From Escherichia coli (GTDB taxonomy: Bacteria > Pseudomonadota > Gammaproteobacteria > Enterobacterales > Enterobacteriaceae), in assembly GCF_030013205.1 (NCBI RefSeq), contig NZ_CP122648.1: DNA of 64,000 nucleotides. One strand, written 5' to 3'. The position numbers and the translations under genes are program-made. Below the pieces are notes generated by a model, which searched no databases, was not told the DNA's origin, and saw only the letters and a program-made list of their open reading frames with translations. Position 1 is the stretch's first letter, and every line of letters begins with the position of its first letter. Of this stretch, positions 5,324 to 53,099 are shown piece after piece.

Positions 5324-6166
5324 ATGTCTGAAATCACAGCCTCTCGTCCGGAAGTGGTCAACGGGCATACGGACGTTATCTGCTCAACCAGTATCCGCCA
5401 CATTCTGGCTGTACGAAAGAGTACATTGCTGCAAATCGACACACTTATCCGGCAACTGGCTGAAATATCAGCAATGACAGAAAGTATTGGAGGTAAAACG
5501 GCTCTGGACTGGGCCATGAAACAGGATTTTCGCTGCGGTTGCTGGCTGATGGAGAAACCGGAAACCGCAATGAAAGCCATCACACGCAATCTTGATCGCG
5601 AACTCTGGCGTGATCTGATGCAACGTTCCGGGTTGCTGAGTCTGATGGATGCGCAGACCCGGGACACATGGTACAGGTCACTGGAATATGATAATTTTCC
5701 GGAAATCAGCGAAGCGAACATTCTGAGCACATTTGAACAACTGCACCAGAACAAAGATGAAGTGTTTGAACGGGGAGTGATCAACGTCTTCAAAGGGCTG
5801 AGCTGGGATTACAAAACCAACTCACCCTGTAAATTTGGCAGTAAAATTATCGTCAACAATCTGGTGAGGTGGGACCAGTGGGGATTTCATCTTATCAGTG
5901 GAATGCAGGCAGATCGCCTGGCTGACCTGGAAAGAATGTTGCATCTGCTCAGCGGTAAACCGATCCCCGACAACCGGGGGAATATCACCATTAATCTGGA
6001 TGACCACATACAGTCCGTTCAGGGTAAAGGACGCTATGAAGATGAGATGTTCATCATTAAATACTTTAAGAAGGGATCTGCACACATCACTTTCAAAAGG
6101 CTGGAGCTGATTGACAGAATTAACGATATAATAGCTAGGCACTTTCCTTCTGTGCTCTCAGCCTGA
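5324..6166 (+). CDS. Hypothetical 280-aa island protein (possibly DUF4942-like)
   Basis: ORF with RBS aaaggaa; last gene before the att repeat; family assignment is from memory only. Confidence 0.45.
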   Translation: MSEITASRPEVVNGHTDVICSTSIRHILAVRKSTLLQIDTLIRQLAEISAMTESIGGKTALDWAMKQDFRCGCWLMEKPETAMKAITRNLDRELWRDLMQRSGLLSLMDAQTRDTWYRSLEYDNFPEISEANILSTFEQLHQNKDEVFERGVINVFKGLSWDYKTNSPCKFGSKIIVNNLVRWDQWGFHLISGMQADRLADLERMLHLLSGKPIPDNRGNITINLDDHIQSVQGKGRYEDEMFIIKYFKKGSAHITFKRLELIDRINDIIARHFPSVLSA

Positions 6167-6276
6167 CCCCGAGTTTGATTCCCTTTCGATATCAAAAGGG
6201 ACTGCGGGTACAAAAGAGGGTACATCTTTCACCAAACCAAACAAAATAAACTAATATCAACATGATAGAAGCATTC

Positions 6277-6298
6277 TTCGATTCCGAGTCCGGCACCA
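6277..6298 (+). repeat. 3' fragment of tRNA-Phe (ttcgattccgagtccggcacca): island att direct repeat, not a full tRNA gene
   Basis: Matches T-arm/acceptor end of E. coli tRNA-Phe; no tRNA body upstream; accessory genes stop here and the K-12-like cadC upstream region follows. Confidence 0.7.
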
Positions 6299-6309
6299 AA
6301 TTCATATAA

Positions 6310-6340
6310 ACGGACCTCCACGGAGGTCCGTTTTTCGTTT
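6310..6340 (+). terminator. Rho-independent terminator (probably the native pheU terminator)
   Basis: cggacctcc / ggaggtccg hairpin followed by tttttcgttt. Confidence 0.6.
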
Positions 6341-6914
6341 CAGGACGCCACAATTTAAGCGTTCTGCCTAAAAATCATTTCTACCGAACTCAACCAAATT
6401 CTCCCCACAACACCAGCATTTTGCGGGTATATCCCAATTCGGGAAAATTTGTTCCTGAGCTATAGCGCTGACTGACGTGAAATGTCGTGCGACCCCGTGA
6501 TGCTGTTGAATGTCAAATGACGTCATCAGGAGCGTAACGCATCCATAAAGCACAACACCGGTCTGAACGCCGACTGATGAGATTTTCTGAATGAGAACAA
6601 AGAGAAATGTATCAGTCCGCTTGCTCATGCAAAGACTAACAATCCATAAAAATAGTAAGCGCGCCGGGCAATTTCCCATGGATTATTTTCTGAACATTTT
6701 TCTTTGGCAAAGATGATGAATTTTGATGATAAGGAATATTACTTCTGGTTCTCAGTAAAATCCTTTCGTAATACTATGTAATCAAGAAGTTTATGGCTGG
6801 TAAAAATAACGTCTTGCATTCACCAATAATATGTAAATAAAACCATCTATAGATGGTAAAAATAGGTTGTGGCAATTATCATTGCATCATTCCCTTTTCG
6901 AATGAGTTTCTATT

Positions 6915-37856: not shown

Positions 37857-40081
37857 TATCGTTCTGCCGTGAAAAGTGTTTGAATATCATCGCGTAACAG
37901 CTGAGCGTCGATGTAAATCCAGCTGTGAGTCATCACAGCCTGCTGCAATTGCTGCTGCATCAGCCTGACCACCGATTCATTTTGTTGACGCAGAGCCAGG
38001 CTTTCGCGTAAACGCGTCTGTAATTCCGTCAAACATGAAGCGAACTCAGCGAAAAAAGTATTCATGCCTGCCGTAACAGATTCATCGACCTGCTCTGCCA
38101 AAACTTTAGCCATTTGTTGGCAATAAAGATCGACTTCTGCGCTTAATGCTCGTTGCAACACACTGTAATCAACCGTCTCTGTCGGGGATTTCTCATTTCC
38201 CCGTCCCCAGTCGGGCTGATTCAACCAGCGCGAAAAAGTCTCACGCACAACGCCTAAACGCGTGCTCTGCTCGTCCGTTGCTTCCTGGCGCGAAATGACT
38301 TCACTGAACAGCTGGCGAGTGTTGAAGTGGGGAACTGCGCCGTGAAAAACAGGAAAATGAAACCCAGGACGAAACCCTGACTCGCTCAATTCCATTTTGA
38401 TTTGTTGCTCAATGGGGCGAATAACATCGGTTAACACCCGGCAAAGGGTGGATTCCAGCTCGGCAAAACGCAGCGTAAAGTCGCGACTGATGGTGTTCTG
38501 CGCCGTCTGTAACAGTGTCTCACAGCGGGTACGAATCTCGCTTAACGGCTCCGAATCATCCTGAAACAAGGCGGCAAACTGCGCATTCAGCGCATCTTGC
38601 TGTTGACGCAGAAAGTGGTTGGCGGAGGTCAGGGCCAGCTCGATTTCATGTTTAATCTCGCCGCTCACCTGCGCCTGATTGAGTTGCAATAGCTGCAAAC
38701 TTTCTTCGACCTGATGGATATTTTGCCGCAATTGTTCACAAGCGACGTTTAACCCGTGCGCACGAAAATCCAGGTATTCCCGCGCCTGCTGCGCGTAATT
38801 CAACAGTTTATGCACGGCAGATCGCAGAGCATACAACGAGGCGTTAGCGTAAGCGGCATGAAGCAACGCCTGAATTGGCTGGGCGAACAGCGAATCTTCC
38901 CACAACTGATCGGCAGCATGACGAATATGTTCGAGGTCAGCCAGATCGGCATGACGCCAGCGCCTGCCGAGCGCGGCATGGGCAAAATCTTCCACCCAGC
39001 GTTGTTGCTCTGGCGGTGGTAACTTACCGTTGTTGGCTAACTCATGGCGCGCCCGATTCGCCAGGTAGCCCCACATCGACGACACCGGAAATATCTGCTG
39101 TGGCGTAATACAGCCTTTCATCAGCGTCCCGGAAATCAGTGCCCGCACCTGGTCGGCGTCGTCACTGTTACGATCCTGTTGATCGAACTTATTGACCAGC
39201 ACATACAGCGGCACCGATTGCCCCACCGCCAAAATCGCCTCACGGACCTCTTCATCGGAGATCGATTTCAGTTGCGTATAATCCAGCACCGCCAGTACCG
39301 CCGAGGCGCGTGCCAGCTGCTGGTTAAGCATTTTTTGCAGATGCGGTTGCCCGGCTTCATTTGGCCCGGGGGTATCCAGTAACGTCAATTGACCGGGATA
39401 ACTCTCCAGCCCCGCCAGATGGACAAACTCCACTTCAATCACGGGAATATGCTCAATGGCGGCGTAAGCAGAAAAAGGAAAATCGACGTCCAGCGCCTTC
39501 GCCAGTCGCACCAAATCATTCAAACTTTTCAGACAATGAAAAATAGGCTGGGCACCCAGATAATATTTTTCGAAAGCGACGCCATTTTCGATCCGCTGCA
39601 TAAGCGCACGCATATCTTTATCTATTTCCAGCACATCGGTCAGATGCTTAATATCGCAATCACGCAGGCGCTGTTGTAATTTTTGAATTAAACAATCGAT
39701 TGGCGCGACATGTGAAAAATGCAGTACCGGTTCCTTTTGCCCGGGCGTATGGCGAATAAGCGTCGGCAGCGCAGTCATTGGGCGATTACGATTAGGCAAA
39801 ACCTCCGTACCAACAATGGCATTAATGGTGGTTGATTTCCCTGCTTTCATGGTACCGACAATCGCCAGCACCATTTCCAGTCGGGAAATTTTACGCAACT
39901 CATTATTCAGCATCGCGTGACGTTCGGCGATATTAGGCTGACTCCAGGGTAAAGCCAGTTGTGGCGCATCGTCTCCGGGGACAGAGAGAGGCATTTTTTC
40001 CAGTAACTGCAACTGTTGGCGAGAAAGCTGTAACAGGCGTTCAGCCTCCTGACTTAACTCATACAGGGTCTGTGTGTACAT
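37853..40081 (-). CDS. crfC: Dynamin-like GTPase CrfC (YjdA)
   Basis: 742 aa from MYTQTLYELSQEAERL; P-loop GTMKAGKST; ORF track extension beyond 40081 runs into IS1 and is an artefact. Confidence 0.9.
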   Translation of the reverse strand: MYTQTLYELSQEAERLLQLSRQQLQLLEKMPLSVPGDDAPQLALPWSQPNIAERHAMLNNELRKISRLEMVLAIVGTMKAGKSTTINAIVGTEVLPNRNRPMTALPTLIRHTPGQKEPVLHFSHVAPIDCLIQKLQQRLRDCDIKHLTDVLEIDKDMRALMQRIENGVAFEKYYLGAQPIFHCLKSLNDLVRLAKALDVDFPFSAYAAIEHIPVIEVEFVHLAGLESYPGQLTLLDTPGPNEAGQPHLQKMLNQQLARASAVLAVLDYTQLKSISDEEVREAILAVGQSVPLYVLVNKFDQQDRNSDDADQVRALISGTLMKGCITPQQIFPVSSMWGYLANRARHELANNGKLPPPEQQRWVEDFAHAALGRRWRHADLADLEHIRHAADQLWEDSLFAQPIQALLHAAYANASLYALRSAVHKLLNYAQQAREYLDFRAHGLNVACEQLRQNIHQVEESLQLLQLNQAQVSGEIKHEIELALTSANHFLRQQQDALNAQFAALFQDDSEPLSEIRTRCETLLQTAQNTISRDFTLRFAELESTLCRVLTDVIRPIEQQIKMELSESGFRPGFHFPVFHGAVPHFNTRQLFSEVISRQEATDEQSTRLGVVRETFSRWLNQPDWGRGNEKSPTETVDYSVLQRALSAEVDLYCQQMAKVLAEQVDESVTAGMNTFFAEFASCLTELQTRLRESLALRQQNESVVRLMQQQLQQAVMTHSWIYIDAQLLRDDIQTLFTAERY

Positions 40082-40100
40082 AGAAAATTCTTCCTTAAAG

Positions 40101-40109
40101 CAAATTTTG
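40101..40109. repeat. Target-site duplication, left copy (caaattttg)
   Basis: Identical 9-mer immediately flanks both IS1 ends. Confidence 0.85.
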
Positions 40110-40164
40110 GGTGATGCTGCCAACTTACTGATTTAGTGTATGATGGTGTTTTTGAGGTGCTCCA

Positions 40165-40440
40165 GTGGCTTCTGTTTCTATCAGCTGTCCCTCCTGTTCA
40201 GCTACTGACGGGGTGGTGCGTAACGGCAAAAGCACCGCCGGACATCAGCGCTATCTCTGCTCTCACTGCCGTAAAACATGGCAACTACAGTTCACTTACG
40301 CCGCCTCTCAGCCCGGTACGCACCAGAAAATCATTGATATGGCCATGAATGGCGTCGGATGTCGCGCCAGTGCACGCATTATTGGCGTTGGCCTCAACAC
40401 GATTTTCCGCCACTTAAAAAACTCAGGCCGCAGTCGGTAA
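40165..40440 (+). CDS. insA: IS1 InsA
   Basis: 91 aa [23 protein letters not shown]... zinc-finger/HTH repressor. Confidence 0.95.
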
Positions 40441-40862
40441 CCTCGCGCATACAACCGGGCAGTGATGTGATTGTCTGCGCTGAAATGGACGAACAGTGGG
40501 GCTACGTCGGTGCTAAATCACGTCAGCGCTGGCTGTTTTACGCGTATGACAGGATGCGGAGGACGGTTGTGGCGCACGTCTTCGGTGAACGCACTCTGGC
40601 CACACTGGAGCGTCTTCTGAGCCTGCTGTCGGCCTTTGAGGTCGTGGTATGGATGACGGATGGCTGGCCGCTGTATGAATCACGCCTGAAGGGAAAGCTG
40701 CACGTTATCAGCAAGCGTTATACTCAGCGCATTGAGCGGCATAACCTGAATCTGAGACAACATCTGGCAAGGCTGGGACGGAAGTCACTGTCGTTCTCAA
40801 AATCGGTGGAGCTGCATGACAAGGTCATCGGGCATTATCTGAACATAAAACACTATCAGTAA
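40359..40862 (+). CDS. insB: IS1 insB frame; transposase InsAB' is made by -1 frameshift from insA
   Basis: 167-codon frame overlapping insA 3' end; slippery A6C at 40416-40422. Confidence 0.9.
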
Positions 40863-40877
40863 GTTGGAGTCATTACC

Positions 40878-40886
40878 CAAATTTTG
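40878..40886. repeat. Target-site duplication, right copy (caaattttg)
   Basis: See left copy. Confidence 0.85.
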
Positions 40887-41259
40887 TTACTTTTATTTAG
40901 CCAGATTGTTTTTGAGTTCTGTTTTCGGCTTTTATAATTACTGCAAGAAATAATTTTATATTTAGAGTGTTGTTTTTTATTAGAATAAATAACGTCTTCC
41001 GATACGTTTAAAACGTCAGAAAGATAAAAATATCATTTGAATTAAAAAAAGAACAAGTAGAGCATTAACCTTATCTTAAATAATAAATGGAGGCAAAAAG
41101 ATTATTTTCTTTTTGCGTTTCCTTTCAAATGAAAACGATCGTCGTCTAAAATCAGCAGTACCCCCGACAAACTCAGGGATTTTGTGTATAATTGCGGCCT
41201 TTTTCGGCAATCTGCCGTTTTTTGGCGCTTTTGCCCTGCTGACTTTTGAGGAAATCCAC

Positions 41260-41595
41260 ATGTCATTACCACACTGCCCAAAATGCAACTCCGAATACAC
41301 CTACGAAGATAACGGCATGTACATCTGCCCGGAATGTGCCTACGAATGGAACGACGCAGAACCTGCACAGGAAAGCGACGAGCTGATCGTTAAAGATGCT
41401 AACGGCAATCTGCTGGCTGACGGCGACAGCGTTACCATCATTAAAGATCTGAAGGTGAAAGGTAGCTCTTCGATGCTGAAAATTGGCACCAAAGTGAAAA
41501 ACATCCGCCTGGTTGAAGGCGACCATAACATCGATTGCAAAATCGACGGTTTTGGTCCGATGAAACTGAAATCTGAGTTTGTGAAAAAGAACTGA
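41260..41595 (+). CDS. yjdM: PhnA-family zinc-ribbon protein
   Basis: 111 aa from [13 protein letters not shown] with two CxxC pairs; longer ORF-track start rejected. Confidence 0.9.
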
Positions 41596-41609
41596 TTGTA
41601 TTGTGATCG

Positions 41610-41690
41610 GTAAGCCGGATAAGGCGCTCGCGCCGCATCCGGCAACGATGCCGACTGCCTGATGCGACGCTGACCGCGTCTTATCAGGCT
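41610..41690. repeat. REP/BIME-type extragenic palindromes
   Basis: gccggataaggcgctcgcgccgcatccggc and gcctgatgcgacgctgaccgcgtcttatcaggc. Confidence 0.7.
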
Positions 41691-41754
41691 TCCCTCTCAT
41701 CTGTATAAATTTCGAACTACACTTAACTGGCTTCTCTTAACTGAGGTCACCATC

Positions 41755-42198
41755 ATGCCGTTAAGTCCCTACCTCTCTTTTGCCGGTAACTGTGCCGACG
41801 CAATTGCTTATTATCAACGTACGTTGGGCGCTGAACTGATCTATAAAATCAGCTTCGGCGAAATGCCAAAATCAGCGCAGGACAGCGCCGAGAACTGCCC
41901 TTCCGGAATGCAATTTCCCGATACCGCCATCGCCCACGCCAATGTGCGCATTGCCGGAAGCGATATCATGATGAGCGATGCTATACCGTCAGGAAAAGCC
42001 AGCTACTCCGGCTTTACGTTAGTGCTCGATTCGCAACAGGTCGAAGAAGGGAAACGCTGGTTTGACAATCTTGCCGCCAACGGAAAAATCGAAATGGCCT
42101 GGCAGGAAACTTTCTGGGCGCATGGCTTCGGCAAAGTCACCGATAAATTTGGCGTACCGTGGATGATTAATGTCGTCAAACAACAACCAACGCAATAA
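41755..42198 (+). CDS. yjdN: Glyoxalase/VOC-family protein YjdN (PhnB)
   Basis: 147 aa. Confidence 0.85.
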   Translation: MPLSPYLSFAGNCADAIAYYQRTLGAELIYKISFGEMPKSAQDSAENCPSGMQFPDTAIAHANVRIAGSDIMMSDAIPSGKASYSGFTLVLDSQQVEEGKRWFDNLAANGKIEMAWQETFWAHGFGKVTDKFGVPWMINVVKQQPTQ

Positions 42199-42223
42199 TC
42201 CGCCGGGAGGCCCGCCCTCCCGC

Positions 42224-42290
42224 ACTGTCATCGAATTCCCGTTAACTCTTCATCTGTTAGTCACTTTTAATTAACCAAATCGTCACAATA
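42224..42290 (+). promoter_or_regulatory. phnC promoter region with candidate Pho box
   Basis: ctgtcat ... ctgttagtcac repeats upstream of phnC; Pho-regulon control is established, exact box not verified. Confidence 0.4.
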
Positions 42291-42330
42291 ATCCGCCACG
42301 ATGGAGCCACTTTTTTAGGGAGGCTGCATC

Positions 42331-43119
42331 ATGCAAACGATTATCCGTGTCGAGAAGCTCGCCAAAACCTTCAATCAGCATCAGGCGCTGCACGCGGTTG
42401 ATCTGAACATTCATCACGGTGAAATGGTGGCTCTGCTTGGGCCGTCGGGTTCCGGCAAATCCACCCTTTTACGTCACTTAAGCGGTTTGATTACCGGCGA
42501 TAAATCTGCCGGTAGCCATATCGAGCTGCTGGGTCGCACAGTCCAGCGCGAAGGCCGCCTGGCCCGCGATATCCGCAAAAGCCGCGCCAACACCGGCTAC
42601 ATCTTCCAACAATTCAACCTGGTGAATCGCCTGAGCGTACTGGAGAACGTGCTGATTGGCGCGCTCGGCAGCACGCCATTCTGGCGCACCTGTTTTAGCT
42701 ACTTCACCCGCGAGCAGAAACAACGCGCGTTACAGGCGCTGACCCGCGTTGGCATGGTGCATTTTGCCCATCAGCGCGTTTCCACCCTCTCCGGCGGGCA
42801 ACAGCAGCGTGTGGCGATTGCCCGCGCGCTGATGCAGCAGGCGAAGGTGATTCTGGCGGACGAACCCATCGCCTCGCTGGACCCGGAATCAGCGCGCATC
42901 GTGATGGACACCCTGCGCGACATCAACCAGAACGACGGCATTACCGTGGTCGTCACGCTGCATCAGGTGGATTACGCCCTGCGCTACTGCGAACGCATCG
43001 TCGCCCTGCGCCAGGGGCACGTCTTCTACGACGGCAGCAGCCAACAGTTTGATAACGAACGCTTTGATCATCTCTATCGCAGCATCAACCGCGTCGAAGA
43101 GAACGCGAAAGCTGCCTGA
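42331..43119 (+). CDS. phnC: Phosphonate ABC transporter ATPase
   Basis: 262 aa; Walker [10 protein letters not shown]. Confidence 0.95.
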
Positions 43120-43143
43120 CATCCCCATCATTGAGGAAAACGA

Positions 43144-44160
43144 ATGAACGCTAAGATAATTGCCTCGCTGGCCTTCACCAGCATGTTCAGCCTCAGCACC
43201 CTGTTAAGCCCGGCGCACGCCGAAGAGCAGGAAAAGGCGTTGAATTTCGGCATTATTTCAACGGAATCACAGCAAAACCTGAAACCGCAATGGACGCCGT
43301 TCTTGCAGGATATGGAGAAGAAGCTGGGCGTGAAGGTCAACGCCTTCTTTGCCCCGGACTACGCGGGCATTATCCAGGGGATGCGCTTCAATAAAGTGGA
43401 TATCGCCTGGTACGGCAATCTGTCGGCGATGGAAGCGGTGGATCGCGCCAACGGTCAGGTCTTCGCCCAGACGGTCGCGGCGGATGGATCGCCGGGTTAC
43501 TGGAGCGTGTTGATCGTCAACAAAGATAGTCCGATCAACAACCTGAACGATCTGCTGGCGAAGCGGAAAGATCTCACCTTCGGCAATGGCGATCCTAACT
43601 CCACCTCTGGCTTCCTCGTCCCCGGTTACTACGTCTTTGCCAAAAACAATATCTCCGCCAGCGACTTCAAACGCACCGTCAACGCCGGGCATGAAACCAA
43701 CGCGCTGGCCGTCGCCAACAAGCAGGTGGATGTGGCGACCAACAACACCGAAAACCTCGACAAGCTGAAAACCTCCGCGCCAGAGAAGCTGAAAGAACTG
43801 AAGGTGATCTGGAAGTCGCCGCTGATCCCAGGCGATCCGATCGTCTGGCGCAAAAATCTGTCCGAAACCACCAAAGACAAGATCTACGACTTCTTTATGA
43901 ACTACGGCAAAACGCCGGAAGAGAAAGCGGTGCTGGAGCGCCTGGGCTGGGCCCCGTTCCGCGCCTCCAGCGACCTGCAACTGGTGCCGATTCGCCAGCT
44001 CGCACTGTTTAAAGAGATGCAGGGCGTGAAAAGCAATAAAGGGCTGAATGAGCAGGACAAGCTGGCAAAAACTAGCGCCATTCAGGCGCAGCTGGATGAC
44101 CTGGACCGCCTGAACAACGCGTTAAGCGCGATGAGTTCGGTGAGTAAAGCGGTGCAGTAA
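43144..44160 (+). CDS. phnD: Phosphonate ABC transporter periplasmic binding protein
   Basis: 338 aa with signal peptide. Confidence 0.95.
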   Translation: MNAKIIASLAFTSMFSLSTLLSPAHAEEQEKALNFGIISTESQQNLKPQWTPFLQDMEKKLGVKVNAFFAPDYAGIIQGMRFNKVDIAWYGNLSAMEAVDRANGQVFAQTVAADGSPGYWSVLIVNKDSPINNLNDLLAKRKDLTFGNGDPNSTSGFLVPGYYVFAKNNISASDFKRTVNAGHETNALAVANKQVDVATNNTENLDKLKTSAPEKLKELKVIWKSPLIPGDPIVWRKNLSETTKDKIYDFFMNYGKTPEEKAVLERLGWAPFRASSDLQLVPIRQLALFKEMQGVKSNKGLNEQDKLAKTSAIQAQLDDLDRLNNALSAMSSVSKAVQ

Positions 44161-44220
44161 TGTGCTCGATCGGTCCCCTCTCCCACAGGGAGAGGGAGAA
44201 AACATTAAACGGAGCAATAT

Positions 44221-45000
44221 ATGCAAACCATCACCATCGCCCCACCCAAGCGCAGCTGGTTCTCGCTTCTGAGCTGGGCCATTGTTCTCGCCGTGCTGGT
44301 CGTCTCGTGGCAGGGCGCGGAAATGGCCCCGCTCACGCTGATTAAAGACGGCGGCAACATGGCAACCTTCGCCGCCGACTTCTTCCCGCCCGATTTCAGC
44401 CAGTGGCAGGATTACCTCACCGAAATGGCCGTCACGCTGCAAATCGCCGTCTGGGGCACCGCGCTGGCGGTGGTTCTCTCCATCCCCTTCGGTCTGATGA
44501 GCGCCGAAAACCTGGTGCCGTGGTGGGTTTACCAGCCCGTACGCCGCCTGATGGACGCCTGCCGCGCCATTAACGAAATGGTCTTCGCCATGCTGTTCGT
44601 GGTCGCCGTTGGCCTTGGCCCGTTCGCTGGCGTGCTGGCGCTGTTTATCCACACCACCGGCGTGCTCTCCAAACTGCTTTCCGAAGCGGTAGAAGCAATT
44701 GAACCCGGCCCGGTGGAAGGTATTCGCGCCACCGGTGCCAACAAGCTCGAAGAGATCCTCTACGGCGTGCTGCCGCAGGTGATGCCGCTGCTGATCTCCT
44801 ACTCCCTCTATCGCTTCGAATCCAACGTCCGTTCGGCCACCGTTGTTGGCATGGTCGGCGCTGGCGGGATCGGCGTCACCCTGTGGGAAGCGATTCGCGG
44901 TTTCCAGTTCCAGCAAACCTGCGCCCTGATGGTGCTGATTATCGTCACGGTCAGCCTGCTGGATTTCCTCTCTCAACGGTTGCGTAAGCACTTTATCTGA
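44221..45000 (+). CDS. phnE: Phosphonate ABC transporter permease, intact frame
   Basis: 259-codon uninterrupted ORF; two copies of a short gctggcg-type repeat at 44626-44643. Confidence 0.85.
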
Positions 45001-45020
45001 TAAGCGAGGCATTGATATCT

Positions 45021-45746
45021 ATGCACTTGTCTACACATCCGACCAGCTACCCAACACGCTATCAGGAGATAGCCGCAAAACTTGAGCAGGAGCTTCGTCA
45101 ACACTACCGCTGCGGCGACTATCTTCCCGCCGAGCAGCAACTGGCGGCGCGCTTTGAGGTGAACCGCCACACCCTGCGCCGCGCCATCGACCAACTGGTG
45201 GAAAAAGGCTGGGTACAGCGCCGTCAGGGCGTCGGCGTGCTGGTGCTGATGCGCCCGTTCGATTACCCGCTCAACGCCCAGGCGCGTTTTAGCCAGAACC
45301 TGCTGGATCAGGGCAGCCATCCCACCAGCGAAAAACTGCTGTCTGTGCTGCGCCCGGCCTCCGGTCACGTCGCTGACGCGCTGGGGATAACCGAGGGCGA
45401 GAACGTTATCCACCTGCGCACCCTGCGCCGGGTCAACGGCGTCGCGCTCTGTTTAATCGACCACTACTTTGCGGACCTCACCCTCTGGCCGACGCTGCAA
45501 CGCTTCGACAGCGGCTCGCTGCACGATTTTCTGCGCGAGCAAACGGGGATTGCGCTGCGCCGCAGCCAGACGCGGATCAGCGCCCGCCGCGCCCAGGCCA
45601 AAGAGTGCCAGCGTCTTGAAATCCCGAATATGTCGCCGCTGCTGTGCGTGCGCACCCTTAACCACCGTGACGGTGAAAGCAGCCCGGCGGAGTACTCCGT
45701 CAGCCTGACGCGCGCCGACATGATTGAATTCACTATGGAGCACTGA
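45021..45746 (+). CDS. phnF: GntR-family regulator of phosphonate use
   Basis: 241 aa from MHLSTHPTSY. Confidence 0.9.
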   Translation: MHLSTHPTSYPTRYQEIAAKLEQELRQHYRCGDYLPAEQQLAARFEVNRHTLRRAIDQLVEKGWVQRRQGVGVLVLMRPFDYPLNAQARFSQNLLDQGSHPTSEKLLSVLRPASGHVADALGITEGENVIHLRTLRRVNGVALCLIDHYFADLTLWPTLQRFDSGSLHDFLREQTGIALRRSQTRISARRAQAKECQRLEIPNMSPLLCVRTLNHRDGESSPAEYSVSLTRADMIEFTMEH

Positions 45747-46199
45747 ATGCACGCAGATACCGCGACCCGCCAGCACTGGATGTCCGTACTGGCACACAGC
45801 CAACCGGCTGAACTGGCAGCCCGCCTGAAGGCGCTGAACATCACTGCCGACTATGAAGTAATCCGCGCCGCTGAAACCGGCCTGGTGCAGATTCAGGCGC
45901 GGATGGGTGGCACCGGCGAACGCTTTTTTGCTGGCGACGCCACGCTCACCCGCGCCACCGTACGCCTGACTGACGGCACGCTCGGCTACAGCTGGGTGCT
46001 GGGGCGCGACAAACAGCACGCCGAACGCTGCGCGCTGATTGACGCGCTGATGCAGCAAACCCGCCATTTTCAAAACTTATCAGAAACCCTTATTGCCCCG
46101 CTGGACGCTGACCGTATGGCACGCATTGCCGCACGCCAGGCCGAAGTGAACGCCAGCCGGGTCGACTTCTTTACGATGGTTCGCGGAGATAACGCATGA
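45747..46199 (+). CDS. phnG: C-P lyase subunit PhnG
   Basis: 150 aa. Confidence 0.9.
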
Positions 46200-46780
46200 C
46201 CCTGGAAACCGCTTTTATGCTTCCTGTGCAGGATGCCCAGCACAGTTTTCGTCGCCTGTTAAAAGCCATGAGCGAGCCGGGCGTGATTGTCGCCCTGCAT
46301 CAGCTCAAACGCGGCTGGCAGCCGCTGAATATCGCCACCACCAGCGTGCTGCTGACGCTGGCCGATAACGACACGCCGGTGTGGCTTTCTGCGCCATTAA
46401 GTAACGATATCGTCAGCCAGAGCCTGCGTTTTTATACCAACGCGCCGCTGGTCAATCAGCCGGAACTGGCGACCTTCGCGGTAACGGATGAGGCGATTTC
46501 CAGCGAACAGCTTAACGCCCTTTCCAGCGGCACCGCTGTTGCGCCAGAAGCGGGCGCGACGCTGATTTTACAGGTCGTCAGCCTGAGCGGCGGGCGCATG
46601 CTGCGCCTTACTGGCGCGGGTATTGCCGAAGAACGAATGATCGCTCCGCAGCTGCCGGAGTGCATTCTGCACGAACTTACCGAGCGCCCGCACCCGTTCC
46701 CGCTCGGCATCGACCTGATCCTGACCTGCGGCGAGCGCCTGCTGGCTATCCCGCGAACCACTCATGTGGAGGTGTGCTGA
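46196..46780 (+). CDS. phnH: C-P lyase subunit PhnH
   Basis: 194 aa; overlaps neighbours. Confidence 0.9.
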
Positions 46781-47844
46781 TGTACGTTGCCGTGAAAGGG
46801 GGCGAAAAGGCGATCGACGCCGCCCACGCCCTGCAAGAGAGCCGACGCCGGGGCAATACCGATTTGCCTGAACTGAGCGTCGCCCAGATTGAACAGCAGC
46901 TTAATCTTGCAGTAGATCGCGTGATGACCGAAGGCGGCATTGCCGACCGCGAACTGGCGGCGCTGGCGCTGAAACAGGCCAGCGGCGATAACGTCGAAGC
47001 GATTTTCCTGCTACGCGCCTACCGCACCACGCTGGCGAAGCTGGCGGTAAGCGAGCCGCTCGACACCACCGGGATGCGTCTCGAACGGCGTATTTCAGCG
47101 GTTTATAAAGATATTCCCGGCGGCCAGCTGCTTGGCCCAACCTACGACTACACCCATCGCCTGCTCGATTTCACCCTGCTGGCAAACGGCGAAGCGCCGA
47201 CGCTGACCACAGCCGACAGCGAACAACAGCCGTCGCCGCACGTTTTCAGCCTGCTGGCGCGTCAGGGGCTGGCGAAGTTTGAAGAAGATAGCGGCGCACA
47301 GCCGGACGACATCACCCGCACGCCGCCGGTTTACCCCTGCTCACGCTCCTCCCGCCTGCAACAATTAATGCGCGGCGACGAAGGCTATTTGCTGGCGCTG
47401 GCCTACTCCACCCAGCGTGGTTACGGGCGCAATCACCCGTTCGCGGGCGAGATCCGCAGTGGCTATATCGACGTGTCTATTGTGCCGGAAGAGCTGGGAT
47501 TTGCGGTGAACGTCGGCGAACTGCTGATGACCGAATGTGAAATGGTCAACGGTTTTATCGACCCGCCGGATGAGCCGCCGCACTTCACGCGCGGCTACGG
47601 GCTGGTGTTCGGCATGAGCGAGCGCAAAGCGATGGCGATGGCGCTGGTTGACCGCGCTCTACAAGCCCCGGAGTACGGCGAGCACGCGACAGGCCCGGCG
47701 CAGGATGAAGAGTTCGTGCTGGCGCATGCCGACAACGTCGAAGCCGCAGGCTTTGTCTCGCACCTTAAACTCCCGCACTACGTCGATTTCCAGGCCGAAC
47801 TGGAGCTACTCAAACGTCTGCAACAGGAGCAGAACCATGGCTAA
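46779..47844 (+). CDS. phnI: C-P lyase subunit PhnI
   Basis: 354 aa from [13 protein letters not shown]; ATG overlaps phnH stop. Confidence 0.9.
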
Positions 47845-48682
47845 TCTGAGCGGCTACAACTTTGCCTACCTCGACGAGCAGACCAAGCGCATGATCCGCC
47901 GCGCCATCTTAAAAGCGGTGGCGATCCCCGGTTATCAGGTGCCGTTTGGCGGGCGCGAGATGCCGATGCCGTACGGCTGGGGAACTGGTGGTATCCAGCT
48001 TACCGCCAGCGTGATTGGCGAAAGCGACGTGTTGAAGGTGATTGACCAGGGTGCGGATGACACCACCAACGCCGTATCAATTCGCAACTTCTTTAAGCGC
48101 GTGACCGGGGTAAACACCACTGAACGTACGGACGATGCGACGCTTATCCAGACGCGCCACCGCATCCCCGAAACGCCGCTGACCGAAGATCAGATCATTA
48201 TTTTCCAGGTGCCGATCCCCGAACCGCTGCGCTTTATCGAGCCGCGCGAAACGGAGACCCGCACTATGCACGCGCTGGAGGAGTACGGCGTGATGCAGGT
48301 GAAGCTGTATGAAGATATCGCCCGCTTCGGTCATATCGCCACCACCTATGCCTATCCGGTGAAGGTGAACGGGCGCTACGTGATGGACCCGTCGCCGATC
48401 CCGAAATTCGATAACCCAAAAATGGACATGATGCCCGCCCTGCAGCTGTTCGGCGCAGGACGCGAGAAGCGCATCTATGCGGTGCCGCCGTTTACCCGCG
48501 TGGAAAGCCTCGATTTCGACGATCACCCGTTCACCGTTCAACAGTGGGATGAGCCGTGCGCCATCTGCGGATCGACCCACAGCTATCTCGACGAAGTGGT
48601 ACTGGATGACGCCGGAAACCGCATGTTTGTCTGCTCCGATACCGATTATTGCCGCCAACAGAGCGAGGCGAAAAGCCAATGA
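47837..48682 (+). CDS. phnJ: C-P lyase catalytic subunit PhnJ
   Basis: 281 aa from MANLSGYNFAYLDEQ; C-terminal Cys cluster CAICGS...C. Confidence 0.9.
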   Translation: MANLSGYNFAYLDEQTKRMIRRAILKAVAIPGYQVPFGGREMPMPYGWGTGGIQLTASVIGESDVLKVIDQGADDTTNAVSIRNFFKRVTGVNTTERTDDATLIQTRHRIPETPLTEDQIIIFQVPIPEPLRFIEPRETETRTMHALEEYGVMQVKLYEDIARFGHIATTYAYPVKVNGRYVMDPSPIPKFDNPKMDMMPALQLFGAGREKRIYAVPPFTRVESLDFDDHPFTVQQWDEPCAICGSTHSYLDEVVLDDAGNRMFVCSDTDYCRQQSEAKSQ

Positions 48683-49437
48683 ATCAACCGTTACTTTCGG
48701 TCAATAACCTGACCCACCTTTACGCGCCGGGCAAAGGCTTTAGCGATGTCTCTTTTGATTTATGGCCGGGGGAAGTGCTGGGCATCGTCGGGGAATCCGG
48801 CTCCGGGAAGACCACGCTGCTGAAATCAATCTCCGCGCGCCTGACGCCGCAGCAGGGGGAGATTCGCTATGAAAACCGCTCCCTCTATGGCATGAGCGAG
48901 GCCGACCGCCGTCGCCTGCTGCGCACCGAATGGGGCGTGGTGCATCAGCATCCGCTCGACGGCCTGCGCCGCCAGGTGTCGGCAGGCGGCAATATCGGCG
49001 AGCGGCTGATGGCGACCGGGGCGCGTCATTACGGCGATATTCGCGCCACCGCGCAGAAGTGGCTGGAGGAGGTGGAGATTCCCTCCAACCGGATCGACGA
49101 CCTGCCGACCACCTTTTCCGGCGGTATGCAGCAACGTTTGCAGATTGCCCGCAACCTGGTGACGCATCCGAAGCTGGTGTTTATGGACGAGCCAACCGGC
49201 GGGCTGGATGTATCGGTACAGGCGCGCCTGCTCGATCTGCTGCGCGGTCTGGTGGTGGAGCTGAATCTGGCGGTGGTGATTGTCACCCACGATCTGGGCG
49301 TCGCCCGCCTGCTGGCGGACCGTTTGCTGGTGATGAAACAGGGGCAAGTGGTGGAGAGTGGGTTAACCGACCGCGTGCTCGACGACCCGCATCATCCGTA
49401 TACCCAGCTGCTGGTGTCATCGGTTTTGCAGAATTGA
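48679..49437 (+). CDS. phnK: C-P lyase-associated ATPase PhnK
   Basis: 252 aa; Walker [10 protein letters not shown]. Confidence 0.9.
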
Positions 49438-49439
49438 GC

Positions 49440-49530
49440 CAGTGCCGGATACGGCGTAAACGCCTTATCCGGCCGACAAATGCGCTCCCCGTAGGTCGGA
49501 TAAGACGCGTCAGCGTCGCATCCGACACCC
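49440..49530. repeat. REP/BIME palindromes between phnK and phnL
   Basis: gccggatacggcgtaaacgccttatccggcc and cggataagacgcgtcagcgtcgcatccg. Confidence 0.7.
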
Positions 49531-49547
49531 GAACCACGAGGCGAAAA

Positions 49548-50228
49548 ATGATTAACGTACAAAACGTCAGTAAAACCTTCATCCTGCACCAGCAAAACGG
49601 CGTGCGCCTGCACGTCTTACAACGTGCCTCGCTCACCGTCAACGCAGGCGAATGCGTGGTACTCCACGGCCACTCCGGCAGTGGAAAATCAACCCTGCTA
49701 CGCTCGCTGTACGCCAACTATCTGCCCGATGAAGGTCAAATCCAGATCAAACACGGTGATGAGTGGGTAGACCTGATCACCGCGCCAGCCCGCAAAGTGG
49801 TGGAGATCCGCAAAACCACCATCGGCTGGGTGAGCCAGTTTCTGCGCGTCATCCCGCGTATTTCGGCACTGGAAGTGGTGATGCAGCCTCTGCTCGATAC
49901 CGGCGTACCGCGTGAAGCCTGCGCCGCTAAAGCCGCGCGTCTGCTCACCCGCCTGAACGTGCCTGAACGCCTGTGGCACCTGGCACCATCGACCTTCTCC
50001 GGCGGCGAACAGCAGCGCGTCAACATCGCCCGTGGCTTTATCGTCGACTATCCGATTCTGCTGCTCGACGAACCTACCGCCTCGCTGGACGCTAAAAACA
50101 GCGCCGCCGTAGTGGAACTGATCCGCGAAGCCAAAGCCCGCGGCGCGGCCATCGTCGGTATCTTCCATGACGAAGCCGTACGCAATGACGTCGCCGACCG
50201 CCTGCACCCGATGGGAGCCTCTTCATGA
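49548..50228 (+). CDS. phnL: C-P lyase-associated ATPase PhnL
   Basis: 226 aa from [11 protein letters not shown]; Walker [10 protein letters not shown]. Confidence 0.9.
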
Positions 50229-51361
50229 TTATCAATAACGTCAAACTGGTGCTGGAAAATGAAGTGGTGCACGGTTCACTGGAAGTACAGGATGGCGAAA
50301 TTCGCGCCTTTGCCGAAAGCCAGAGCCGCCAGCCGGAAGCGATGGACGGTGAAGGTGGCTGGCTACTGCCCGGACTGATTGAGCTGCATACCGACAACCT
50401 CGATAAATTCTTCACCCCGCGCCCGAAAGTCGACTGGCCCGCCCATTCGGCGATGAGCAGCCACGACGCGCTGATGGTGGCAAGCGGCATCACCACCGTA
50501 CTGGACGCCGTGGCGATTGGTGATGTGCGCGACGGCGGCGATCGGCTGGAGAATCTGGAGAAGATGATCAACGCCATCGAAGAGACGCAGAAACGCGGCG
50601 TCAACCGCGCCGAGCACCGCCTGCACCTGCGCTGCGAACTGCCGCACCACACCACGTTGCCGCTGTTTGAAAAACTGGTGCAGCGCGAACCGGTGACGCT
50701 GGTATCGCTGATGGACCACTCGCCAGGCCAGCGCCAGTTCGCCAATCGCGAGAAGTATCGCGAATATTATCAGGGCAAATACTCGCTCACCGATGTGCAG
50801 ATGCAGCAGTACGAAGAGGAACAGCTGGCGCTTGCCGCACGCTGGTCACAGCCGAATCGCGAATCCATCGCCGCCCTGTGCCGCGCGCGACAAATTGCGC
50901 TCGCCAGCCATGATGACGCCACGCACGCACACGTTGCCGAATCCCACCAGCTTGGCAGCGTGATCGCCGAATTTCCCACCACGTTCGAAGCGGCACAAGC
51001 CTCGCGCAAGCATGGCATGAACGTGCTGATGGGCGCGCCGAATATCGTGCGCGGCGGTTCGCACTCCGGCAACGTGGCGGCCAGTGAACTGGCGCAGCTT
51101 GGCCTGCTGGATATCCTCTCTTCCGACTACTACCCCGCCAGCCTGCTCGATGCGGCATTTCGCGTCGCCGATGACGAGAGCAACCGCTTTACGCTGCCGC
51201 AGGCGGTGAAGCTGGTGACTAAAAATCCGGCGCAGGCGCTTAATCTTCAGGATCGCGGAGTGATTGGCGAGGGCAAACGCGCCGACCTGGTGCTGGCGCA
51301 TCGCAAGGGCAACCACATTCATATCGACCACGTCTGGCGTCAGGGTAAAAGGGTGTTCTGA
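50225..51361 (+). CDS. phnM: PhnM, amidohydrolase-family triphosphate hydrolase
   Basis: 378 aa. Confidence 0.9.
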
Positions 51362-51918
51362 TGACGGGAAAACTGATTTGGTTAATGGGGGCCTCTGGCT
51401 CCGGAAAAGACAGTCTGTTGACGGAACTCCGCCAGCGGGAACAAACTCAGCTACTGGTAGCGCATCGCTACATCACGCGCGCCGCCAGCGCCGGAAGTGA
51501 AAATCATATCGCCCTGAGCGAGCAGGAGTTTTTTACCCGCGCGGGGCAGAACCTTCTGGCCTTAAGCTGGCACGCCAACGGCCTGTATTATGGCATCGGC
51601 GTCGAGATTGACCTCTGGCTGCACGCTGGATTTGACGTGGTGGTCAACGGCTCACGCGCCCATCTGCCGCAGGCGCGGGCGCGCTATCAATCGGCGCTGC
51701 TGCCCATTTGCTTACAGGTTTCGCTGGAGATCCTGCGCCAGCGCCTGGAAAACCGTGGCCGTGAAAACGCAAGTGAAATTAACGCCCGGCTGGCGCGCGC
51801 CGCCCGCTATACTCCTCAGGATTGTCTTACGCTCAATAATGACGGCAGCCTGCGCCAGTCGGTCGACACGCTGCTGACGCTGATTCATCAGAAGGAGAAA
51901 CACCATGCCTGCTTGTGA
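51361..51918 (+). CDS. phnN: Ribose 1,5-bisphosphate phosphokinase PhnN
   Basis: 185 aa; P-loop GASGSGKDS. Confidence 0.9.
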
Positions 51919-52339
51919 GCTTCGCCCGGCCACGCAGTACGATACCGACGCAGTTTACGCGCTGATTTGTGAGCTAAAACAGGCGGAGTTTGACCACCAC
52001 GCGTTTCGCGTGGGCTTTAACGCCAACCTGCGCGACCCGAACATGCGCTACCATCTGGCGCTGCTGGATGGCGAAGTTGTCGGCATGATCGGCCTGCATT
52101 TGCAGTTTCATCTGCATCATGTCAACTGGATCGGCGAAATTCAGGAATTGGTGGTGATGCCGCAGGCGCGCGGTCTGAATGTCGGCAGTAAATTACTGGC
52201 ATGGGCAGAAGAAGAAGCCCGCCAGGCCGGGGCCGAAATGACCGAGCTTTCCACCAACGTCAAGCGCCACGACGCGCACCGTTTCTATCTGCGCGAAGGC
52301 TATGAGCAGAGCCACTTCCGCTTCACCAAGGCGCTGTAA
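51905..52339 (+). CDS. phnO: Aminoalkylphosphonate N-acetyltransferase PhnO
   Basis: 144 aa GNAT. Confidence 0.9.
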
Positions 52340-52340
52340 C

Positions 52341-53099
52341 ATGAGCCTGACCCTCACACTTACTGGCACTGGCGGCGCACAGGGCGTTCCCGCATGGGGC
52401 TGTGAGTGCGTGGCCTGCGTCAGAGCGCGGCGCTCACCGCAGTATCGCCGCCAGCCATGCAGCGGCGTCGTGAAGTTTAACGACGCGATCACCCTGATCG
52501 ACGCCGGGCTGCACGATCTCGCCGATCGCTGGTCGCCCGGATCGTTCCAGCAGTTTTTGCTGACGCACTACCATATGGATCACGTGCAGGGGCTGTTTCC
52601 GCTGCGCTGGGGCGTGGGCGATTCGATCCCGATCTACGGCCCGCCGGATGAACAGGGCTGCGACGATCTGTTTAAACATCCGGGCCTGCTTGATTTCAGC
52701 CACACGATGGAACCGTTTGTGGTGTTTGATTTACAGGGGTTACAGGTCACGCCCCTGCCGCTCAACCACTCAAAACTGACCTTCGGTTATCTGCTGGAAA
52801 CGGCACATAGCCGGGTGGCGTGGCTGTCTGACACCGCAGGCCTACCGGAAAAAACGCTGAAATTTTTACGCAATAATCAACCGCAGGTGATGGTGATTGA
52901 TTGCAGCCACCCACCGCGCGAGGATGCACCGCGTAATCACTGTGATTTAAATACCGTGCTTGCGCTGAATGAAGTTATCCGCTCGCCGCGCGTGGTTCTG
53001 ACCCATATCAGCCATCAGTTTGATGCGTGGCTGATGGAGAACTTACTGCCGTCAGGGTTTGAGGCGGGGTTTGATGGGATGGAGATTGGGGTGGCGTGA
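52341..53099 (+). CDS. phnP: PhnP, metallo-beta-lactamase-fold phosphodiesterase
   Basis: 252 aa from [12 protein letters not shown]; HxHxDH motif THYHMDH. Confidence 0.9.

Follow-up and report, generated by a model that had tools for sequence, protein, structure and literature searches.

An intact two-copy phnE allele in a complete phnC-phnP operon of Escherichia coli

In the 64-kb stretch of Escherichia coli DNA analysed here (64,000 nucleotides; the window), the phosphonate utilisation genes phnC to phnP are all collinear on the plus strand, full length and free of internal stop codons (Table 1), which bears out the complete 14-gene operon announced in a preliminary description of this DNA. 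The 13 K-12 Phn proteins other than PhnE align end to end and without gaps with the products of the window genes, from 42331, where phnC starts, to 53099, where phnP ends. Identity to the K-12 Phn proteins ranges from 94.6 to 100%, and a start and a stop codon are present in each gene. When positions 41607-53099 were compared with K-12, the sole indel located inside a coding sequence was one of 8 bp in phnE; the remaining indels are confined to two spacers, yjdM-yjdN and phnD-phnE.

Table 1. Genes and other features of the phn locus, with positions in the window; percentages are identity to the K-12 protein.
Feature	Position	Strand	Product or nature	Match or remark
pho box (putative)	42254..42286	+	putative PhoB-binding site in the phnC upstream region, CTGTTAGTCAC TTTTAATTAAC CAAATCGTCAC	by reference to the K-12 phnC promoter
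phnC	42331..43119	+	phosphonate ABC importer ATPase, 262 aa	98.5%; NF007438, 606 bits, 1-262 of 262
phnD	43144..44160	+	periplasmic phosphonate-binding protein, 338 aa	99.4%; TIGR03431, 376 bits
hairpin	44176..44196	+	perfect 9-bp stem in the phnD-phnE spacer, CCCTCTCCC-ACA-GGGAGAGGG	-24 kcal/mol, z = -4.25
phnE	44221..45000	+	phosphonate ABC importer permease, 259 aa	single ORF from ATG to TGA, intact
8-bp repeat	44626..44641	+	two tandem 8-bp units, GCTGGCGT then GCTGGCGC (also written GCTGGCGc)	phnE codons 136-141; K-12 frameshift site
phnF	45021..45746	+	GntR-family regulator, 241 aa	100%; NF007486, 518 bits
phnG	45747..46199	+	C-P lyase core subunit, 150 aa	97.3%; PF06754, 178 bits
phnH	46196..46780	+	C-P lyase core subunit, 194 aa	95.4%; PF05845, 202 bits
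phnI	46780..47844	+	ribose 1-methylphosphonate 5-triphosphate synthase subunit, 354 aa	99.4%; PF05861, 513 bits
phnJ	47837..48682	+	radical-SAM C-P lyase, 281 aa	99.3%; PF06007, 502 bits; Gly32, Cys241/244/266/272
phnK	48679..49437	+	ABC-type ATPase subunit of the C-P lyase complex, 252 aa	98.8%; PF00005
phnL	49548..50228	+	ABC-type ATPase subunit, 226 aa	97.8%; PF00005
phnM	50225..51361	+	ribose 1-methylphosphonate 5-triphosphate diphosphatase, 378 aa	97.9%; amidohydrolase domain
phnN	51361..51918	+	ribose 1,5-bisphosphate phosphokinase, 185 aa	94.6%, full length
phnO	51905..52339	+	aminoalkylphosphonate N-acetyltransferase, 144 aa	100%; GNAT domain
phnP	52341..53099	+	phosphoribosyl cyclic phosphodiesterase, 252 aa	95.6%, full length; metallo-beta-lactamase-fold domain

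The continuous 259-codon frame that had been claimed for phnE held up on re-translation, which gave no frameshift, and the predicted protein covers nearly the whole of the NCBIfam equivalog model TIGR01097 (score 311.3 bits, cutoff 216.7; residues 16-258 aligned with profile positions 8-251 of 252). A GGAG motif lies 8 nt 5' of the ATG. Assignment to the PhnE family is further supported by gene context, as the two genes directly upstream on the same strand, phnC and phnD, encode its partner ATPase and binding protein, and both products pass their own equivalog models. At the DNA level, phnE of the window is 100% identical to the annotated phnE of strain K_EC180, and the 780-bp gene was matched in 5,394 of the 5,426 complete E. 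coli genomes in RefSeq. On the minus strand, a 296-codon ORF (44122-45012) runs antisense over all of phnE; most likely this ORF is no gene and merely reflects the high G+C content of the coding strand.

Within phnE, the preliminary description had placed two copies of a short repeat at 44626-44643. Two units are indeed found at that site, with the true end of the second at 44641, 2 nt less than claimed. The strictly periodic part of the tract comprises 15 nt (44626-44640), the first unit corresponds to positions 406-413 of the ORF, and the tract is read in frame as A136-G137-V138-L139-A140-L141 (AGVLAL). The frame is open because the GCTGGCGT unit is present twice: simulated insertion of 8 or 16 bp into the window gene led to a stop at codon 160 or 166, and since one or two extra units produce premature stops, slippage at this site would be expected to turn the transporter off. 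We also considered whether the repeat is remarkable in itself and rejected this idea. The 64-kb window contains four period-8 repeats in which 7 or more bases match, versus 2.8 ± 1.8 in shuffled sequence, and Tandem Repeats Finder did not report the phnE 8-bp repeat even at its lowest score threshold. As the count of such tracts is at chance level, the repeat is not notable alone, and the significance of the two-copy tract lies only in its location at the site of the K-12 lesion.

The K-12 frameshift had been put down to an extra copy of this repeat, and both alignment and annotation of the K-12-lineage reference, strain DH1, confirm this. In DH1, phnE is a 788-bp feature flagged as 'frameshifted', and the alignment places exactly one additional 8-bp unit at the window repeat site (three copies versus two). 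Removal of one unit from the K-12 gene yields a 259-aa frame with V21I as the sole difference from the window protein; the unrepaired K-12 frame meets a stop at codon 190. In total, the two phnE genes differ at 27 nucleotides and their products at one residue. A K-12 revertant has been reported to have lost 5'-GCTGGCGT at phnE ORF positions 407-414 (PMC6469041), a site one base of register apart from the first unit in the window, so that the window repeat can be equated with the unit behind the K-12 lesion, as had been supposed. This 8-bp deletion in K-12 was ascribed to slippage between direct repeats and arises at high frequency (PMC4759930). K-12 has likewise been described as phosphonate-deficient through an 8-bp duplication, which is no longer present in proficient mutants (PMC3463581), and the cryptic operon of K-12 with its frameshifted phnE, phn(EcoK0), is attributed to Makino et al. 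1991, as cited in PMC6469041 and PMC3463581. The window has the same locus and gene order as phn(EcoK0), and the repeat unit and the codon at which it sits are shared as well; whereas phn(EcoK0) carries three units in a 788-bp gene that stops at codon 190, the window carries two units and an open frame. With two copies, no third GCTGGCGT copy and an open frame, the window phnE is not a cryptic K-12-type allele.

The region upstream of the operon is also conserved, as the 132 bp 5' of phnC (42199-42330) are identical to K-12 at 131 positions. We take this region to contain the PhoB-dependent promoter, and presume by reference to the K-12 phnC promoter that the element listed in Table 1 is its pho box. 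Between phnD and phnE, the window has 60 bp (44161-44220) where K-12 and REL606 each have 105 bp, those of K-12 with a different sequence. The hairpin in this spacer, for which no second such match was found in the window, may serve as an RNA stabiliser or an attenuator within the operon; alternatively, it may be a small repeat element of another kind. An approximately 100-bp repeat between yjdM and yjdN is present in five tandem copies in K-12 (5944-6425 of the comparison locus) and as a single copy in the window (41607-41689), and a related copy in the opposite orientation (~78% identical) occupies positions 49439-49522 of the 110-bp phnK-phnL spacer. Both are probably REP/BIME-type elements.

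Further upstream, between crfC and yjdM, a 768-bp IS1 element at 40110-40877 lies approximately 20-28 bp upstream of the point where crfC starts and is flanked by a 9-bp target duplication, CAAATTTTG, at 40101-40109 and 40878-40886. This insertion is not present in K-12 or REL606, and at least 12 porcine O139:H1/ETEC genomes carry it with 100% identity; crfC-rdcB or yjdM could be expressed differently as a result. A 5.5-kb segment that runs from the end of crfC through phnE (39600-45100, IS1 included) has matches of 100% identity in at least 12 complete porcine E. coli genomes, a set that includes K_EC180, W13-16 and P15-25 (both O139:H1) and several ETEC isolates. All close relatives of the window strain have a two-copy phnE.

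Outside this lineage, a counterpart of the window allele is found in E. coli B, the classical strain proficient in phosphonate use. The phnE of REL606 has two repeat copies, 780 bp and 259 codons, and its product is identical to that of the window at 258 of 259 residues, with I21 in the window and V21 in B as the difference. The operon of this strain, phn(EcoB), has been described as proficient for growth on phosphonates (PMC3463581), and it shares with the window the two 8-bp units and the same 14 genes in the same order. The two loci differ in the phnD-phnE spacer, which in phn(EcoB) has the 105-bp form and in the window the shorter form with a different hairpin, and in the IS1 element between crfC and yjdM, which only the window strain carries.

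From the intact frames, the conserved promoter region and the near-identity to PhnE of E. coli B, we infer that the phosphonate pathway is functional in this strain, in line with the preliminary description. It is conceivable that the operon is intact in sequence and nevertheless non-functional, through an amino acid substitution or through a defect outside the window, in the PhoBR regulon. The 14 Phn proteins do show 59 amino acid differences from K-12, concentrated in PhnH (9), PhnM (8), PhnN (10) and PhnP (11). In every phn gene, however, nucleotide differences from K-12 far exceed amino acid changes (for example, 27 nucleotides and one residue in phnE, and 39 nucleotides and two residues in phnI), as expected if purifying selection acts on working genes. 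Moreover, Pfam or NCBIfam models for PhnC, PhnD, PhnF, PhnG, PhnH, PhnI and PhnJ are matched over nearly their full length; Pfam was used for PhnI and PhnJ because NCBIfam holds no useful model for either. PhnJ retains Gly32, Cys241, Cys244, Cys266 and Cys272 at the expected positions. Of these catalytic residues, Cys241, Cys244 and Cys266 belong to the 4Fe-4S cluster. Since the segment from 39600 to 45100 has in addition been kept without change in at least 12 independent porcine isolates, we regard a non-functional operon as improbable.

The frequency of each allele in the species was estimated with a 98-nt query of the K-12 three-copy type against the complete E. coli genomes in RefSeq, in which matches of at least 95% identity were counted as three-copy and alignments with an 8-base gap as two-copy. 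Approximately 1,009 records, roughly 19% of these genomes, carried three copies, and approximately 3,900 records aligned with the 8-base gap. A whole-gene search agreed with the three-copy share, as the 788-bp form of phnE was found in 8 of 40 evenly spaced matches. With an 82-nt query aimed at one-copy alleles, three-copy records were matched in two pieces and occupied the top of the match list, and a one-copy allele was not identified. Three-copy alleles also occur outside laboratory strains, in isolates from dog, pig, human and seawater. At least 12 complete genomes, of human, chicken, pig-farm and wastewater origin, have four copies (+16 bp, frameshifted); in one of them, YZ22PE244, the 796-bp phnE is annotated as a frameshifted pseudogene. 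These counts make the intact two-copy phnE the majority state, at ~80%; an intact phnE is the species norm and K-12 the exception.

Since deletion from three copies to two is frequent in K-12 under selection (PMC4759930, PMC6469041), the two copies in the window could reflect a recent phase-ON revertant of a three-copy (OFF) ancestor and not the ancestral state of the lineage. This is very unlikely, as the window gene is 27 nucleotides away from that of K-12 and K-12-type flanks (at least 99% identity) surround 994 of the 1,009 three-copy alleles, whereas the flanks in the window differ; the uniform two-copy state of the close relatives and of most of the species argues in the same direction. 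The shared flanks also suggest that three-copy alleles are mostly inherited clonally and would not flip frequently. That the copy number is an artefact of assembly or sequencing, with the repeat collapsed, can be set aside, since short tandem repeats are miscountable in principle but this 16-bp tract is far below any read length, the 5.5 kb that span it are identical in at least 12 complete genomes with assemblies independent of each other, and thousands of genomes have the same two-copy state.

We are confident that the window phnE is an ordinary 'ON' allele in a complete phnCDEFGHIJKLMNOP operon, in which a third or fourth copy of the unit would truncate the protein. The mechanism expected for such an operon is that of the established pathway. 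Under phosphate starvation, PhoB would activate the phnC promoter, and PhnCDE would bring in phosphonates as well as phosphate. PhnGHIL, PhnM, PhnJ, PhnP and PhnN would together convert alkylphosphonate and ATP to PRPP and an alkane, by way of ribose-linked intermediates and a radical-SAM cleavage of the C-P bond, while PhnO would acetylate aminoalkylphosphonates and PhnF would serve as the repressor. A unit could be gained at the two-copy tract by replication slippage, and the transporter thereby switched off; this would be the reverse of the well-documented reversion from three copies to two in K-12. Import of phosphate by PhnCDE has been described (PMC6469041).

Phase variation of phnE by slippage at a short tandem repeat is credited to Iqbal et al. 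2004, and one title cited in this connection speaks of reversible phase variation. The window allele resembles that system in having the same 8-bp intragenic tract, of which natural genomes hold alleles with two, three and four units, and differs from it in being ON with the minimum number of tandem copies. Judged by its sequence, the tract has the form expected of a phase-variable locus, as it is an intragenic tandem repeat whose copy number differs among strains and toggles the reading frame. The potential slippage hotspot named in the preliminary description keeps that status: slippage is established for the step from three copies to two in K-12, and the existence of two-, three- and four-copy genomes is consistent with it. 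The two-copy tract is a weaker slippage substrate than the three copies of K-12. The tract might function as a genuine contingency switch in natural E. coli populations, beyond a peculiarity of K-12, a reading that we consider somewhat less likely than not. If it were one, loss of uptake through PhnCDE would be recurrently selected in some niches, and the porcine lineage would be in the ON state and able to switch.

To go by cited titles and the accounts in later papers, the intact phnE, the repeat and its slippage are already known, having been described since 1991 and 2004, and the allele reported here has little importance beyond correct annotation. It does make plain that K-12 is unsuitable as the reference state for phnE. 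A by-product of the analysis is the census of the repeat over ~5,400 complete genomes, with two copies in roughly 80% of them, three in 19% and four in a handful. For the strain itself, the two-copy allele predicts phosphonate use, and phosphate uptake through PhnCDE, with no need for the reversion on which K-12 depends.
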